From contig JAISDC010000082.1 of the NCBI GenBank assembly GCA_031265105.1, positions 1 to 20,839 on the forward strand: 20,839 nt of DNA. The letters run 5' to 3'. Positions within the stretch are counted from its first letter, which is position 1. Every line of letters begins with the position of its first letter. Positions 3,717-20,839 of this stretch are shown piece by piece. Both the position numbers and the translations under genes were made by a program. The notes beneath the pieces are model-generated. The model did no database searches. It had not been told where the DNA came from and saw nothing but the letters and a program-made list of their open reading frames with translations. Source of the DNA: Verrucomicrobiales bacterium (lineage in GTDB: Bacteria > Verrucomicrobiota > Verrucomicrobiia > Methylacidiphilales > JAAUTS01).

Positions 3717-3812
3717 TTGAAGATTGATGATGGCCAATTGACTATTTGCCGATTGCGCGCGGCGCGCCAACTAACAAATTATCAATATTCAATGATCAAT
3801 GGAAAATTCCCC

Positions 3813-5621
3813 ATGTCGCTCCTGCAACTCAACAACATCACGCTGCAATACGGCGCGGCGCCCTTGCTCGCTGGCGTCGATTTCCAGCTCGACGAGGGCG
3901 AGCGCGTGTGCTTGCTGGGCCGCAACGGCACGGGCAAGACCAGCCTGCTGCGGGTCATCGCCGGCGAGGAAACGCCCAACGGCGGCGAGGTCATCGTCAG
4001 CGGCGGTAAAATCATCACGCGGCTGCCGCAGGAAATTCCTGACAACTTAACCGGCGACACCGTCAGCGTCATTCGCGACGGACTGCCCGCTGACCGTCAC
4101 GAGGAGGAATGGGAAACGGCACGGCGCATCGAGACGCTGCTGGCGGCGATGAAGCTGCCCGCTGACGCTGACTTCACGGCGCTGTCCGGCGGCCTGCGGC
4201 GTCGCGTGCTGCTGGCGCGGGCACTGGCGGGGCGGCCCGACGCGCTGCTGCTCGACGAGCCGACCAACCATCTCGACATCGACTCGATTCTGTGGCTGGA
4301 GAATTTTTTGCTGGCGCAAAAAACCGCGTTGCTGTTCACCACGCACGACCGCGCGTTCCTGCAGCGGCTGGCCACGCGCATCGTCGAACTGGATCGCGGC
4401 AAACTCTCCTCGTGGGACTGCGATTACGCAACCTACCTTGTCCGCAAGGAAGCGTGGCTCGAAGCCGAGGAAAAAAACTGGGCGACATTCGATAAAAAAC
4501 TGACGCAAGAAGAAGCCTGGCTGCGGCAAGGGGTCAAAGCCCGCCGCACCCGCAACGAGGGCCGGGTCCGCGCGCTGGAGCAAATGCGCCGCGAGCGCAG
4601 CCAGCGGCGCGAACGGCTCGGCAACGCCAGGCTCAGCCTCAGCGAGGCCGAGGTGTCGGGCCGCAAAGTCATCACCGCCGAAAACCTCGGCTTCACCTAC
4701 GGCGACCGCCCCATCGTCAGCGGCTTCAGCACGGAAATCTGGCGCGGCGACAAAATCGGCATCATCGGCCCGAACGGCGCGGGCAAGACCACGCTACTGA
4801 AATTATTGCTGGGGCAACTATCACCGTCAGCGGGCCGCGCGCGGCACGGGACGAATTTGCAAGTTGCCTATCTCGACCAACTCCGCGCCATCAATAACGA
4901 GAAAACCGTGGCGGAGAATGTCGCCGGCGCCGCGGCAAGCATCACATTCCAGGGCCGGTCGCGACATATTCATAGTTACTTGTCAGACTTCCTGTTCGCG
5001 CCCGACCGCGCGCGCTCTCCCGCCAAGGTTTTGTCCGGCGGCGAGCGCAACCGGCTGCTGCTGGCAAAATTGTTTTTGCAACCCGCCAACGTGCTGGCGC
5101 TTGACGAACCGACCAACGACCTCGACGCCGAGACGCTGGAGTTGCTGGAAAATTTATTGGTGGAATACGACGGCACGCTGCTGCTGGTGTCGCACGACCG
5201 CGCCTTCCTGGACGAAGTTTGCGCCAGCACGCTGGTGTTCGGCGCTGACGGTGAGGTGACGGAATACCATGGCGGCTATAGCGATTGGTTGAAGCACGCT
5301 GCCAATGAACGAAAAATATCATCCGCTGACACTGACACAAAAAAATCCCCCGCTGACGTGGCGGTGAAAAAATCCTGCCGCCCGCGCAAATTCCTTAATC
5401 GCGAACAATGGGAGCTTGACGCCCTGCCTGGCAAAATCGAGCGACTCGAAGCCGAGCAAGAGCAAGTTTCGCAACAACTCTGGGATCCCGAACTATACCA
5501 AAAATCGCCTGAGAAAATCCCCGAACTCAAGTCACGTTCAGCGGCGCTGGAACAGGAAAGCAAAGCCGCCTACGCCCGCTGGGAGGAACTGGAGCAGCTC
5601 CGCCGGGAGTGCGGTGGCTGA
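3813..5621 (+). CDS. uup: ABC-F family ATP-binding protein Uup (tandem ABC domains plus C-terminal coiled-coil/DNA-binding tail)
   Basis: MSLLQLNNITLQYGAAPLL...GRNGTGKTSLLRV (Walker A 1), LSGGLRRRVLLARAL (signature 1), LLLDEPTNHLD (Walker B 1), GPNGAGKTTLLK (Walker A 2), LSGGERNRLLLAKL (signature 2), LALDEPTNDLD (Walker B 2), and the QEEAWLRQGVKARRTRNEGRVRALEQMRRER linker. It is collinear with E. coli Uup (MSLISMHGAWL...). The ORF-track start at 3717 is a TTG immediately after the MIF stop, so I prefer the in-frame ATG at 3813. Confidence 0.9.
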   Translation: MSLLQLNNITLQYGAAPLLAGVDFQLDEGERVCLLGRNGTGKTSLLRVIAGEETPNGGEVIVSGGKIITRLPQEIPDNLTGDTVSVIRDGLPADRHEEEWETARRIETLLAAMKLPADADFTALSGGLRRRVLLARALAGRPDALLLDEPTNHLDIDSILWLENFLLAQKTALLFTTHDRAFLQRLATRIVELDRGKLSSWDCDYATYLVRKEAWLEAEEKNWATFDKKLTQEEAWLRQGVKARRTRNEGRVRALEQMRRERSQRRERLGNARLSLSEAEVSGRKVITAENLGFTYGDRPIVSGFSTEIWRGDKIGIIGPNGAGKTTLLKLLLGQLSPSAGRARHGTNLQVAYLDQLRAINNEKTVAENVAGAAASITFQGRSRHIHSYLSDFLFAPDRARSPAKVLSGGERNRLLLAKLFLQPANVLALDEPTNDLDAETLELLENLLVEYDGTLLLVSHDRAFLDEVCASTLVFGADGEVTEYHGGYSDWLKHAANERKISSADTDTKKSPADVAVKKSCRPRKFLNREQWELDALPGKIERLEAEQEQVSQQLWDPELYQKSPEKIPELKSRSAALEQESKAAYARWEELEQLRRECGG

Positions 5622-5644
5622 CAAAGCGGTTGGGCACAGAGAGA

Positions 5645-5725
5645 CACAGAGCAGGCACAGAGTTCCACAGAAATTTTCTCTGTGGCTCCCGGTGCCTGCT
5701 CTGTGTGTGCTGCGGGCTGTTTTTA
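5645..5725 (+). terminator. long imperfect hairpin plus T-run downstream of uup. It is built from CACAGAG word repeats.
   Basis: CACAGAGCAGGCAC (5645-5658) pairs with GTGCCTGCTCTGTG (5692-5705). There is an inner stem CCACAGA (5665-5671) / TCTGTGG (5678-5684), then GCTGTTTTTAG at 5716-5726. Confidence 0.5.
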
Positions 5726-5965
5726 GAATTGATGGCGGCAGCCCGCTGTTAGTCTCCAGGATTTGTCGTACTTGTCGCCGAAAGAGGCTTCGTAGTCGAG
5801 GTGGAGTTGATTGTCAGCGTCAGCGCCGGGGGCTCGGTAATCTATATCGCTGCGGCCGTAACCGGCGTAAATTCCCAGATAGAGGTCACTGTCAGTGGAC
5901 AAGGTAAACTTAGTTATTTGTTCTTGGTTAAAATAGTGGTTTGAGGCTTGGTTGCTTCCCGCGCG
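5726..5965 (-). pseudogene. start-less remnant of an autotransporter beta-barrel domain, paralogous to the 3' end of the autotransporter at 18264..20839
   Basis: Minus-strand frame reads ...QEQITKFTLSTDSDLYLGIYAGYGRSDIDYRAPGADADNQLHLDYEASFGDKYDKSWRL... The autotransporter reads KFTLSADSDLYLGVFAGYGRSDLDYRTPGTDGELNSYYGG. About 80/99 nt are identical between 5813..5911 (reverse complement) and 20388..20486. The remnant has no Met start and is bounded by in-frame stops (TGA at 5968..5966, TAA at 5725..5723). Confidence 0.45.
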
Positions 5966-6078
5966 TCACCCTGAGCGGAGGCGAAGGGGCGGGTTGGCTC
6001 AGCAATGGAGCGGGCCGGTCCTGCGACGCGCTACGCTTGCCCAAGATGGGCGGGGACGCCAGCATGATGAAAATATAC

Positions 6079-6109
6079 TTGCTAGTCGAGGTCACTGTCA
6101 GCGTAGCAT
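6079..6109 (+). promoter_or_regulatory. candidate copA promoter with a 19-bp spacer (TTGCTA - 19 - TAGCAT). This geometry is typical of MerR/CueR-type metal-responsive promoters.
   Basis: TTGCTA at 6079-6084, a 19-nt spacer, TAGCAT at 6104-6109. Partial dyad GTCACTGTCAG in the spacer. No cueR gene is visible in the window. Confidence 0.2.
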
Positions 6110-6182
6110 CGGAATCATGACTGCCGGCGGCCAGGAACATTTTGCCGTTTGCGGGGCGCGGGGGCGGTGGCATACTCGCGGC

Positions 6183-8366
<2,184 letters not shown>

Positions 8367-17377: not shown

Positions 17378-18129
17378 ATAGAAACCAACATGCAGTCAGC
17401 AACATCAGCGTCAAAAAATACATCCACAAAACCTGGGACGGTATTGACGACTTCTTCACCCAATACGGCGACAACCTCGTCAACGTCCAGACCAAAACCG
17501 ACCCCGGTCTCGCCGACGCCGACATCGCCAATGTCAAGGAAACCACCGCCGCCTACGGCAAATTGAACCAAGCCATTGACGAAGTGGAAAGACTCCTCGC
17601 CGCCCTGCGCGCCCTGCGCATCCAACTCCTCACCCAGCAAACTATGGACCCCGTCCGCGTCCCCCTCATCCAACCCCTCACCACCCTCCTTGCCGCCATC
17701 GAAGGCAAACGCGGCGGCTTGCTCTGGCAAGAAGACCGCCTCACCGACCGCATCTTCCGCAGCCCCAGATGCACCCAGGAAGACTACGAAATGCTCGGCA
17801 TCGTTTACAAACCCAACACTTCAGCCCCCATTGATAACCTCATCGGCAAACTCTACGCCGTGTTTGACGGCGGCAAAGTTCCGATCCATTGGACCCTCCC
17901 GCGCGGCTACCACAACGCCCGCCTCACCGCCAGCACCAACCACGGCGAATGGGTACTACTCTACGAAGGCAGCGAAAGCCACTTCATCGACGCGCGCCCC
18001 ATCCCCGCCATCTCCGAAATCCGCTCCTACAAACTCGAAATCATGGAAACCGGCAAACCCATCGGCAAACCCGCCATCGACAAAATCCTCGTCGGCCAAG
18101 ACATCTCCGTCGAAGAAACCAAACTCTAA
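17374..18129 (+). CDS. hypothetical protein, 251 aa. No domain recognised; no signal peptide.
   Basis: AAAGGAA Shine-Dalgarno sequence 4-5 nt upstream of ATG 17374. Protein-like composition (MNRNQHAVSNISVKKYIHKTWDGIDDFF...). Codon usage has more A/T-ending codons than the core genes and resembles the adjacent autotransporter. A long inverted-repeat terminator follows it. Confidence 0.6.
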   Translation: MNRNQHAVSNISVKKYIHKTWDGIDDFFTQYGDNLVNVQTKTDPGLADADIANVKETTAAYGKLNQAIDEVERLLAALRALRIQLLTQQTMDPVRVPLIQPLTTLLAAIEGKRGGLLWQEDRLTDRIFRSPRCTQEDYEMLGIVYKPNTSAPIDNLIGKLYAVFDGGKVPIHWTLPRGYHNARLTASTNHGEWVLLYEGSESHFIDARPIPAISEIRSYKLEIMETGKPIGKPAIDKILVGQDISVEETKL

Positions 18130-18140
18130 CTAGCCTCATT

Positions 18141-18248
18141 AACGCAAAGACGCAAAGGAACAAAGTAACGCAAAGATTTTTGTTAATTGAAAAACCAAAC
18201 CAAAAAAATCTTCGCGCCTTTGCCCCTTTGTTCCTTTGCGTTAATGCA
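18141..18248. terminator. family B inverted-repeat element pair forming a long hairpin after the 251-aa gene
   Basis: Left arm ATTAACGCAAAGACGCAAAGGAACAAAGTAACGCAAAG, then ATTTTTG. Right arm AAAAAATCTTCGCGCCTTTGCCCCTTTGTTCCTTTGCGTTAAT. Homologous copies are at 11343-11394 and 12533-12553. Confidence 0.55.
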
Positions 18249-18263
18249 GCTCAAAAAAACTTT

Positions 18264-20839
18264 ATGAAAACCTCCAACATGAAAACACGAAAACTAACCC
18301 TGATACTAACCCTCCTCTGCGCCCTCAGCGTCTCCGCGTTGAACATCTTCGCGGAAAACAAAATCGTCAATACCGGCACCGTGGTGGAATCCGGCAGTAC
18401 CTACGCCGCCTCCACCAATCAGTCGGCCCTGACGGTCAGCGGCAGCGGGACGCTGTACGAGGGCACTAACCTTACTTTGTCCAGCACCGAGACCAACCAG
18501 CATGGCGTCTTCGTCAACACCCAAGGCGCGCTATCGTTACGTGACAGCACGGTTTTCACTTCCGCCACTGGCGCTTACGGCATTGCGTTGACCACCACCT
18601 CGTCCGCCAGCCTGGAACGTGTCGCGGTCACGGTCAGCGAAGCGTTTTCGCATGGCATCTATATGTTGAACTCCAAGCTGTCCGTGACCGACGCGACAGT
18701 GGTGATTTCGGCATCCAATAGGAACGGTCATTTCGACGGAATATACATCGGCAACACCAGCGAAGCTGATTTGACAAATGTGAGCGTAGAATTACGGGGC
18801 GACCAGACCAACGGCATCAGCATCCTCAACACCGCCACCGACAAAAGCACCGTCACGGCCACCGGTATCAACATTGCCGCGCAAGGCGAACTTGCCGACG
18901 GTCGGGCCAATGTCAGCGGTGTCACCGTAGAAGGTAACGCGGACCTGCAAATGCGCGATTTTTTAGTCACGGTGCGCGACGGTAATGCGGGCGTGAACAC
19001 TTGGACGAACCCTATACTACGGGTTGACGAGTTTGTGACGCTGCGCAGCGGCACCATCATTATGATTGATAGCGGCGCCGGGATTAATGTCGGCGGCAAC
19101 GGTAATCGCTATGTGGCATTGCACGATGTGGCTATCAGCGCGAGCGGCGAGGACACCCATGCCATTCTTATGGACACGCGCGGGTTGGACATTGATGACA
19201 AAGTTCTGCTGGTTGACGGCGGCAAGTTCATCGCCGAAAACGGGGCGGCGCTCCGGGTGGGGCTGTTCGGCGAGACATCCGAGCTCAATGCCACGCAGTC
19301 CGCGGGCGCCAACTATACCGTCACCATCACCGGCAGCGCCGCCCTCAGCGGCACGGCGGCCATGGAATTCGGCACCACCGCCATTGCCCCCAGCGGCACG
19401 GCCTACGAACTGGTCAACCACGCCCGCATAACCGTGGCGGATGGCTCCACCCTCACCGGTGCCACCAACATCCACGGCAACTCCGACGTGAATATAGAAC
19501 TCACCGACAACTCCGCCCTGACCGGCGACCTTACCGCCAGCGGCTCGTCCAACACCACCCTCAGCGGCAGCAACGGCGCCACCATCACCGGCACCGTCAG
19601 CGGCAACGATAACGCCGTCATCGACCTCACCGTCAGAGGCCCCGGCAGCACCATCATCAGTGACATTAACCAAAACGACGACGCAGCCGTCACCATCACC
19701 CTCGATAACAGCGCCACCGGCCAAGGCGGCTACCACGGCGGCAACCTCATCACCGGCAGCGATAGCACCTGGACTTTTGACAAGGACAGCCACGGCAACT
19801 ACGGCGAAAACAATGGCACTTGGAACATCGGCGACTACGAAGTCATCTTCGATAACATGACCCACACCGGCACCGTTAACATCAGCGTCAACACCGACAC
19901 CGGCGACGGCGGCTCTATCACTGTGGATACCGCTGACGGTGAAGGCACCGTCCACATCGACACCACCGGCAACGGTAAACTCAACCCCAACGACGTACTC
20001 CCCGGCGTCGTCACCGGCGACGGCACGGAACACTGGCAATGGGATCCCATCGACTGGGGCATCGACACCATCATCAAAGACGGCGACCACTTCATCAAAC
20101 AAGGCACCAGCCCCGCCGGCGCAGAATTGAACAGCAGCGTAGCCATCCAACAAGCCAGGTGGTTCGCGCAGCAAAACAGCCTGCTCAAACGCATGGGTGA
20201 CCTCCGCTTTTCGTCATCCCGTCAACTCGTCACCTCGTCGTCTGACAAAGCCGTCACCCTCAGCGCTGCCAACCTGATCGAAAACATCTGGCTCAGAAGC
20301 TACGGCCAACAATTAAACGTCGGCAGTAAAGTATCAGGCAAAGCCTACGAACAACTCATCTACGGCGTGGACTTGGGCACTGACCATAAGTTCACCTTGT
20401 CCGCTGACAGTGACTTATATCTGGGCGTCTTCGCCGGTTACGGCCGCAGCGACCTCGACTACCGCACCCCCGGCACTGACGGTGAACTCAACTCCTACTA
20501 CGGCGGCCTCTACGCCACGTGGTTACACAGCAGCGGCCTCTACATCGACGCTACCGTCAAAGCCGCCAGCGTGGACAACAATCTAAAAGCTCCCTACAGC
20601 GGCAGTCAAATCACCGCCAACTACAGTGATGTGAACCTCGGCGGCAGCATCGAAATCGGGAAGAAGTTCACCTTCGCTGATGATTGGTTCATCGAACCCC
20701 AGTTTCAAGTCAACTACCTCCACATCCTCGCCGAGGACTATCAAGCCGGCCCCATGAGCATCACCGCCAGCGACCTCGACGCCCTCCAGTTCAGAATCGG
20801 CAGCGTATTCGGCCGCACCCTCAAGCTCGCCAACGGCGG
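18264..20839 (+). CDS. classical (type Va) autotransporter: signal peptide, Gly/Thr/Asn-rich beta-helical passenger, C-terminal beta-barrel. Partial: runs off the window end.
   Basis: MKTSNMKTRKLTLILTLLCALSVSALNIFA signal peptide. The passenger has repetitive beta-helix-like tracts (TLSGSNGATITGTVSGNDNAVIDLTV...). The junction reads AIQQARWFAQQNSLLKRMGDLRF...NIWLRSYGQQ, followed by barrel strands (YLGVFAGYGRSDLDY...GGLYATWLH...GGSIEIGKKF...). No stop occurs before 20839, hence it is absent from the ORF track. Confidence 0.85.
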   Translation, partial: MKTSNMKTRKLTLILTLLCALSVSALNIFAENKIVNTGTVVESGSTYAASTNQSALTVSGSGTLYEGTNLTLSSTETNQHGVFVNTQGALSLRDSTVFTSATGAYGIALTTTSSASLERVAVTVSEAFSHGIYMLNSKLSVTDATVVISASNRNGHFDGIYIGNTSEADLTNVSVELRGDQTNGISILNTATDKSTVTATGINIAAQGELADGRANVSGVTVEGNADLQMRDFLVTVRDGNAGVNTWTNPILRVDEFVTLRSGTIIMIDSGAGINVGGNGNRYVALHDVAISASGEDTHAILMDTRGLDIDDKVLLVDGGKFIAENGAALRVGLFGETSELNATQSAGANYTVTITGSAALSGTAAMEFGTTAIAPSGTAYELVNHARITVADGSTLTGATNIHGNSDVNIELTDNSALTGDLTASGSSNTTLSGSNGATITGTVSGNDNAVIDLTVRGPGSTIISDINQNDDAAVTITLDNSATGQGGYHGGNLITGSDSTWTFDKDSHGNYGENNGTWNIGDYEVIFDNMTHTGTVNISVNTDTGDGGSITVDTADGEGTVHIDTTGNGKLNPNDVLPGVVTGDGTEHWQWDPIDWGIDTIIKDGDHFIKQGTSPAGAELNSSVAIQQARWFAQQNSLLKRMGDLRFSSSRQLVTSSSDKAVTLSAANLIENIWLRSYGQQLNVGSKVSGKAYEQLIYGVDLGTDHKFTLSADSDLYLGVFAGYGRSDLDYRTPGTDGELNSYYGGLYATWLHSSGLYIDATVKAASVDNNLKAPYSGSQITANYSDVNLGGSIEIGKKFTFADDWFIEPQFQVNYLHILAEDYQAGPMSITASDLDALQFRIGSVFGRTLKLANG

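Follow-up and report, generated by a model that had tools for sequence, protein, structure and literature searches.

In the metagenome-assembled genome of an uncultured Verrucomicrobiales bacterium, the stretch at 5628-5912 between uup and copA is very probably the non-functional relic of a type Va autotransporter (AT) gene that was convergent to uup and was reduced to its present form by two deletions. As judged from homology, these 285 nt of the minus strand can be read as two pieces of a beta-barrel, a stop codon and a terminator hairpin (Table 1; coordinates refer to the window, i.e., the whole analyzed stretch of 20,839 nt, which is a complete contig, unless another contig is named). A dead AT beta-barrel remnant between these two genes had already been proposed in a preliminary description of the same DNA, and the homology of both barrel pieces (blocks A and B) bears this out. 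Its extent had been put at about 100 nt: it is indeed an AT barrel fragment, but one of ~285 nt in two blocks.

Table 1. Features of the relic and its surroundings (a dot denotes that no strand applies).
Feature	Position	Strand	Basis
uup (ABC-F ATPase), upstream neighbour	3813..5621	+	Pfam ABC_tran x2, ABC_tran_Xtn, ABC_tran_CTD
AT 3' untranslated module, long hairpin	5628..5722	-	L072 match, folding, inverted repeat
Native TAA stop of the ancestral AT gene, in conserved TAAAAAC	5723..5725	-	homology to L038, L072, L073
ORF, hypothetical protein LBK71_03720, 59 aa, TTG start	5723..5902	-	P0001 / MDR1145228.1, GenBank
Block B, last 30-32 codons of the AT beta-barrel (DADNQLHLDYEASFGDKYDKSWRLTAGCRHQF), terminal Phe	5726..5821	-	homologues
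Deletion junction, overlapping tandem GTCAGCGTCAGCG	5813..5825	.	three-way layout live AT/L073, relic, L038/L073
Block A, early beta-barrel segment (KFTLSTDSDLYLGIYAGYGRSDIDYRAPGAD)	5818..5912	-	blastn, tblastn, partial Pfam
Non-AT spacer, relic 5' border to copA	5913..6182	.	tblastn, GC by segment
copA-type P1B heavy-metal ATPase, downstream neighbour	6183..8366	+	Pfam E1-E2_ATPase, Hydrolase, HMBD
Live AT paralogue	18264..20839, past contig end	+	PF03797, blastn

Two barrel pieces and a 3' module

The relic is convergent with uup, the start of which lies at 3792 or 3813, and copA is followed by ordinary chromosomal genes (rmuC, a PLD-family enzyme, a GDSL lipase, an amidohydrolase, and an SPFH protein). 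The gene at the far end of the window, which had been taken for a live AT, is indeed a real one: its N-terminus is signal-peptide-like, it stays open over 858 codons until the contig ends, and its residues 675-857 match Pfam PF03797 (E 9e-32). When 5600-6200 was compared with the whole window by blastn, this live AT gave the sole strong non-self match (5803-5912 against 20495-20387; 83.6 % over 110 nt, E 3e-28), and tblastn found 25/33 residues identical (E 5e-12). Over the 99 nt for which about 81 % identity had been claimed (5813-5911 against 20388-20486), 82 positions agree (82.8 %). The 5' border of the relic at 5912/5913 is sharp, the next 40 nt being identical at only 12/40 positions, which is the random level; the similarity is thus a block of ~110 nt and not merely a shared word of 13 nt, as would have been conceivable. 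Block A is the counterpart of live-AT residues 709-739 and of positions 37-64 in the PF03797 profile, to which it gives a partial, sub-threshold hit (E 0.022, 14.9 bits against a cut-off of 26).

Both blocks are similar to bona fide AT beta-domains (PF03797) by blastn and tblastn. When the 80-residue minus-strand frame 5965..5726, whose translation is exactly as quoted in the preliminary description, served as the query, it was the second half that found matches and not the first (...LDADNQLHLDYEASFGDKYDKPWGLTAGYRHQF). The sequence of block B forms the very C-terminal end of AT barrels in this clade, as seen in 38 homologues, among them full-length proteins with 812 and 1000 residues. It shares 28/32 residues with P0006 (E 5e-15) and matches both P0006 and P0009, which are PF03797-positive, while block B itself is invisible to Pfam because the PF03797 profile stops ~21 residues short of the C-terminus. 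At the nucleotide level, 5719-5821 match the 3' end of an AT in a sister genome (L038 8162-8264; 83 % over 103 nt, E 9e-26), and 5628-5814 match the 3' end of an AT paralogue in the same genome (L072 69-255; 89.3 % in an ungapped alignment of 187 nt, E 4e-69). The latter match takes in the TAA stop, the conserved TAAAAAC and the whole long hairpin; TAAA(A/G)AC was found at all five AT 3' ends examined. Block B, stop codon and hairpin, which together occupy 5628-5821, also match L038, L073, and L074.

The hairpin (28-bp arms at 5644-5671 and 5679-5706) directly follows the relic stop codon and folds with -54.8 kcal/mol (z -5.5) on the plus strand and -52.4 kcal/mol (z -6.1) on the minus strand. 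It lies 7 nt past the stop codon of uup, with a T5 run 3' of the outer stem on the plus strand; on the AT (minus) strand, the sequence past the hairpin lacks a clear U-tract. The same type of hairpin follows the AT stop codon in L072. The preliminary description had assigned this spot to the uup terminator region, which is probably correct in so far as the hairpin also terminates uup, but the L072 match shows that it belongs to an AT 3' module; an AT-derived hairpin would thus now probably serve as putative terminator of uup. A simple scanner reported no terminator-like site in 5500-6300, which may be owed to the bulged stem, and a search of 5500-6400 against Rfam returned nothing beyond sub-threshold matches of the inverted repeat to microRNA hairpins, which are meaningless here.

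As a side observation, a second type of hairpin was seen 3' of the AT stop codons in L038, L073, and L074. Gene ends in this lineage carry very long hairpins built of short periodic words (-48 to -58 kcal/mol, z to -9.4), for example, at 18137-18245 (in the gap that separates a gene end at 18129 from the start of the live AT), at L038 8265-8345, and near the starts of L073 and L074.

Deletion junction, lost parts, and the sister genome

The two adjacent GTCAGCG copies that had been noted before are present at 5813-5819 and 5819-5825, and comparison with intact barrels shows that they are the two sides of a 501-nt in-frame deletion junction. In the intact barrel of L073, site 1 (CCCGGCGCTGACGGTGAG) and site 2 (CTCGACACCAAC) lie 501 nt (167 codons) apart. 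Site 1 reads CCCGGCGCTGAC/GGTGAG and site 2 reads CTCGAC/ACCAAC (GCTGAC in L038), while the relic reads CCCGGCGCTGAC/GCTGACAATCAA, so that the two sites are joined at a 4-nt overlap, GACG. On the plus strand this microhomology is CGTC at 5818-5821, inside GTCAGCGTCAGCG. At the protein level, P0009 gives the same count of 167 codons, and the order of the sites is confirmed by the full-length P0036 and P0037 as well as by P0009.

On its 5' side, the relic lacks at least 708 codons (signal peptide, passenger, and first strand), i.e., at least 2.1 kb. The surviving 31 + 32 codons are 63 of the ~260 codons of a barrel, and a complete 12-stranded barrel (~250-280 residues) is absent. Neither a signal peptide nor a passenger is encoded ahead of these codons, and from 6183 the opposite strand is taken up by copA. 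A tblastn search with the 858-aa live AT found no homology to AT passenger or signal peptide in 5913-6182, a spacer that is made up of a 28 %-GC stretch (5914-5945), a short repeat (5965-5996) and the copA upstream region. The past recombination or deletion that had been suspected at this spot can hence be specified as a 501-nt internal deletion plus a 5' truncation.

The following course of events would account for these features, and as a whole we regard it as very likely. A classical (type Va) AT gene would once have stood tail-to-tail with uup. An in-frame deletion of 501 nt, at a 4-nt microhomology between two copies of CGCTGAC, a hyper-abundant word of this genome, would have removed 167 barrel codons and joined '...YRAPGAD' (second strand region) to 'ADNQLHL...RHQF' and the stop codon (last strands), and a separate 5' truncation would have taken the promoter, the signal peptide, the passenger, and the first barrel strand. 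The sister lineage (L001) would then have lost another 136 nt of the relic. That the gene decayed in place we infer from the comparisons given here; the 5' truncation and the internal deletion may have occurred in either order.

Bacterial deletions between short direct repeats arise by replication slippage or illegitimate recombination. Like microhomology-mediated deletions, the present one joined sites 501 nt apart at a 4-nt GACG with an imperfect 11-nt similarity; unlike the usual ones, it has both of its sites in copies of a 16-fold over-represented word. The join is out of register with this 7-nt word, so that both word copies were kept.

L001 belongs to an independently assembled sister genome (GCA_031266335.1), in which uup is 94.7 % identical at the nucleotide level. 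It has the same deletion junction and the same 5' border as the relic in the window, which indicates that both deletions predate the split of the two genomes and are not assembly artefacts. L001 lacks window positions 5672-5807 (136 nt), a loss that leaves hardly anything of block B and takes away the second arm of the hairpin; its remnant has no stable hairpin (z -0.8), and the hairpin is thus dispensable. Divergence between the window and L001 amounts to 5.7 % in the relic as compared to 5.3 % in uup, 9.1 % at third positions of uup, and 5-8 % in the other spacer; the spacer 5913-6182 is 92-95 % identical. The relic differences from L001 are distributed 1/3/4 over the codon positions, which, small as these numbers are, gives no sign of coding constraint. 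Moreover, three residues of the relic, S, R, and C, stand in place of what is P in 38/38, G in 36/38, and Y in 37/38 of the homologues. Its C-terminus reads ...AGCRHQF before the stop, as compared to ...AGYRHQF in the 38 homologues, i.e., the aromatic end, a signature of outer-membrane proteins, is kept and the Tyr is replaced by Cys. Both the divergence and the replacements fit neutral decay as deduced from sequence comparison, and the relic combines the hallmarks of a pseudogene: homology to paralogues together with disruption, and relaxed constraint (on small numbers).

A synteny comparison with relatives that might carry an intact gene here, as had been suggested, found only L001 to be syntenic, with the relic present there too. 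Among 37 Uup loci in genome contigs, no intact AT was found between uup and copA, and the order uup-relic-copA is kept only in L001 (94 %). Uup orthologues in L001-L004 range from 94 to 76 % identity, and in L002-L004 (76-80 %) unrelated genes lie downstream of uup. In metagenome contigs searched with Uup, the best hit had 70 % identity, and neither an AT nor copA adjoined uup.

Alternative readings

The 59-aa ORF LBK71_03720 is a gene-caller product over the relic. One may nevertheless ask whether it is a real small protein, such as a mini beta-hairpin peptide derived from the AT barrel. The relic frame is open over 80 codons and down to its native stop, the ORF was called by PGAP, and the internal deletion has kept the reading frame, as one in three would by chance; in addition, a sigma70-like match (CTGACA-18-TATATT, minus strand 6101..6072) points into the relic, which could conceivably be transcribed from there. 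Such a protein would, however, have no signal peptide, would begin with a TTG within a former beta-strand, and would retain 63 of the ~260 barrel codons, with three otherwise invariant C-terminal residues replaced, among them the last-strand Tyr. Its C-terminal half is missing from L001, where the frame enters antisense uup, and the substitutions show no third-position bias. We hence consider a functional small protein highly improbable. A role at the RNA level is extremely unlikely in turn. The preliminary description had spoken of an antisense remnant, which is right as to orientation, but nothing points to an antisense function. In principle, a plus-strand RNA of the relic would be 83-89 % complementary to AT barrel-coding sequence over ~190 nt and might regulate the paralogues, and the intergenic region is 92-95 % conserved in comparison with L001. 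This conservation is nevertheless at the neutral-like level of the neighbours, and L001 dispenses with 136 nt of the relic. On the plus strand, moreover, the relic lies behind a strong hairpin with T5 after uup and upstream of the likely copA promoter region, so that no plus-strand transcript is expected over it.

The origin of the relic can be debated as well. That the block was copied in from a paralogue, be it as a templated break-repair patch or by ectopic gene conversion, would agree with the failure to find an intact gene at this locus in any relative examined and with the AT 3' modules being multi-copy repeats in the genome. Yet barrel, stop codon and hairpin stand in native order and orientation, the relic borders directly on a convergent gene, an arrangement also seen for live or fragmentary ATs in L038, an in-frame microhomology join of two non-contiguous segments is more simply derived from a deletion inside a single gene, and no close donor was seen, the best matches being 83-89 % identical; a copied-in patch is accordingly very unlikely. 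Finally, AT barrels do break assemblies, as the window itself ends inside one and several 36-aa 'proteins' lie 36-69 nt from contig ends, which might raise the suspicion that the junction is a chimera assembled from repeated AT sequences. The chance of this is practically negligible: the same junction and borders recur in the independently assembled, 5 % divergent L001, and a 4-nt overlap is too short to mislead a long-k-mer assembler (the contigs of the relatives are named k119_). Decay of a resident AT gene by deletion thus remains the preferred reading.

The AT family, comparable cases, and the abundant word

The preliminary description had deduced at least one more AT paralogue in this lineage. 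Further paralogues do exist, but the figure was a large understatement, as at least 11 further AT C-termini could be placed in the relic's genome by accession and locus-tag numbering (anchored by LBK71_03720 = MDR1145228 and LBK71_08390 = MDR1146114). This genome has a full-length AT of 812 aa (P0036). P0004 (86 aa) is a genuine 5'-truncated AT fragment with 29 N-terminal residues that are non-AT. The first 24 residues of P0027 are the last residues of the live AT of the window, and P0027 is probably its missing end. The sister genome carries a comparable AT set, including an internal 150-aa fragment (P0006 in L038) that is convergent with its neighbour across a hairpin.

Two further groups of candidates were discarded. 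The 36-aa P0021, P0023, and P0028 had looked like recurrent AT 3' relics, but their distances from contig ends identify them as assembly breaks; P0020 had been considered as a second product of internal deletion, but in the alignment its N-terminus turned out to be a last hairpin in divergent form. Proteins of 36 aa (MWQLD...YRHQF) were observed at L072 50-160, L073 69-179, and L074 36-146 in the sister genome, and as P0023 in the window's genome; several 36-aa 'hypothetical proteins' of GenBank are AT C-termini truncated where a contig stops.

One might go further and picture the AT 3' module (last strands, TAAAAAC, and hairpin) as a recombination anchor of at least 12 paralogues, with GTCAGCG promoting rearrangements, with relics such as the present one, P0004, and P0006 as by-products or silent donors of a programmed or frequent cassette exchange that diversifies the surface passengers, and with the relic hairpin exapted as uup terminator. 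We regard this as a distinctly unlikely scenario.

The relic adds a case from another phylum to the well-known decay of AT families. In Rickettsia, the sca ATs occur as complete, split, fragment or remnant genes and vary in this between close lineages (PMC1388218). Common to both cases is a paralogous AT family with members in decay. Unlike the sca genes, which reside in obligate intracellular pathogens, the relic belongs to an uncultured Verrucomicrobiales bacterium; it is also much smaller (63 codons), and its exact junction and a kept terminator are resolved. In Campylobacter, the ATs capC and capD undergo lineage-specific progressive decay with inactivation patterns shared within lineages (PMC7168839), and pseudogenised type Va ATs are mentioned for Brucella (PMC8111173). 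The Campylobacter and Brucella cases are mostly frameshifts and truncations that leave the genes recognisable, whereas more than 85 % of the gene is gone here.

What follows from the relic is, in the first place, that the 'hypothetical protein' LBK71_03720 is to be re-labelled as an AT pseudogene fragment. Beyond annotation, the relic is a record of birth-and-death turnover within the large AT family of this uncultured Verrucomicrobiales lineage and offers a clean, nucleotide-level case of stepwise erosion, with a 5' truncation, a microhomology deletion, and a third deletion in a sister lineage. It also illustrates that the terminator of a dead gene can outlast the gene itself beside a convergent neighbour. 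On its own, the relic raises no new biological question; the genome-wide GTCAGCG word is the more interesting feature nearby.

This word has 79 copies in the window (41 on the plus and 38 on the minus strand) as compared to 4.8 expected, i.e., it is 16-fold over-represented. Its extended consensus is about GTCAccGTCAGCGgC, and copies are found, for example, at 4160-4172, 5813-5825, and 6097-6103, as well as in L001, L002, L004, and L038. Per kb there are 3.3-4.9 copies in the window, in the sister genome and in relatives with 77-80 % identical Uup, as compared to no more than 0.15-0.37 in L003 (76 % Uup) and in less closely related Verrucomicrobia. The uup orthologues hold 10, 10, 11, 5, and 0 copies, at positions that are partly shared and partly lineage-specific, some of them by way of amino-acid-changing substitutions. 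In density and turnover, the word resembles DNA uptake sequences or the cyanobacterial HIP1; a literature search for GTCAGCG as an uptake sequence returned no match.

A 14-mer, GAGGTCACTGTCAG, is common to 5882-5895 in the relic and to 6071-6104 upstream of copA. The latter site was considered as a second AT fragment and dismissed, the 14-mer being a member of the abundant word family GTCAc(c/t)GTCAGCG, which has 8 matches at up to 2 mismatches as compared to 0.07 expected. By eye, the plus strand of 6071-6104 also shows TTGCTA-19 nt-TAGCAT, a spacing reminiscent of MerR/CueR promoters. A short GC-rich repeat, GTCA(C/T)CCTGAGCGGAG(G/C)CGAAGG..CGGGTTG, lies at 5965-5996, some 50 nt off the 5' border of the relic, and was also seen at L001 3913-3935 and at L038 14800-14845 and 6684-6710. 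Its copies in the sister genome stand at unrelated intergenic sites, and it may be REP- or MITE-like.

Within copA, the segment 6401-6560 (first membrane helices) is only ~55-70 % identical to L001, with indels, while its flanks and the spacer are 85-95 % identical. A clear recombination breakpoint was considered here and rejected, as identity to L001 recovers past 6560; the alignment points to hypervariability confined to this segment or to a small patch of recombination. Lastly, Uup contains ...FGADGEVTEYHGGYSDWL... (5241-5420), which resembles ...PGADGEINSYYGGLYATWL... of the AT (tblastn within the window, E 3e-5). In both genes it is the extended abundant word GGCGCTGACGGTGA that encodes the GADGE motif, and the likeness of Uup and AT is apparently a word-driven convergence and not homology.
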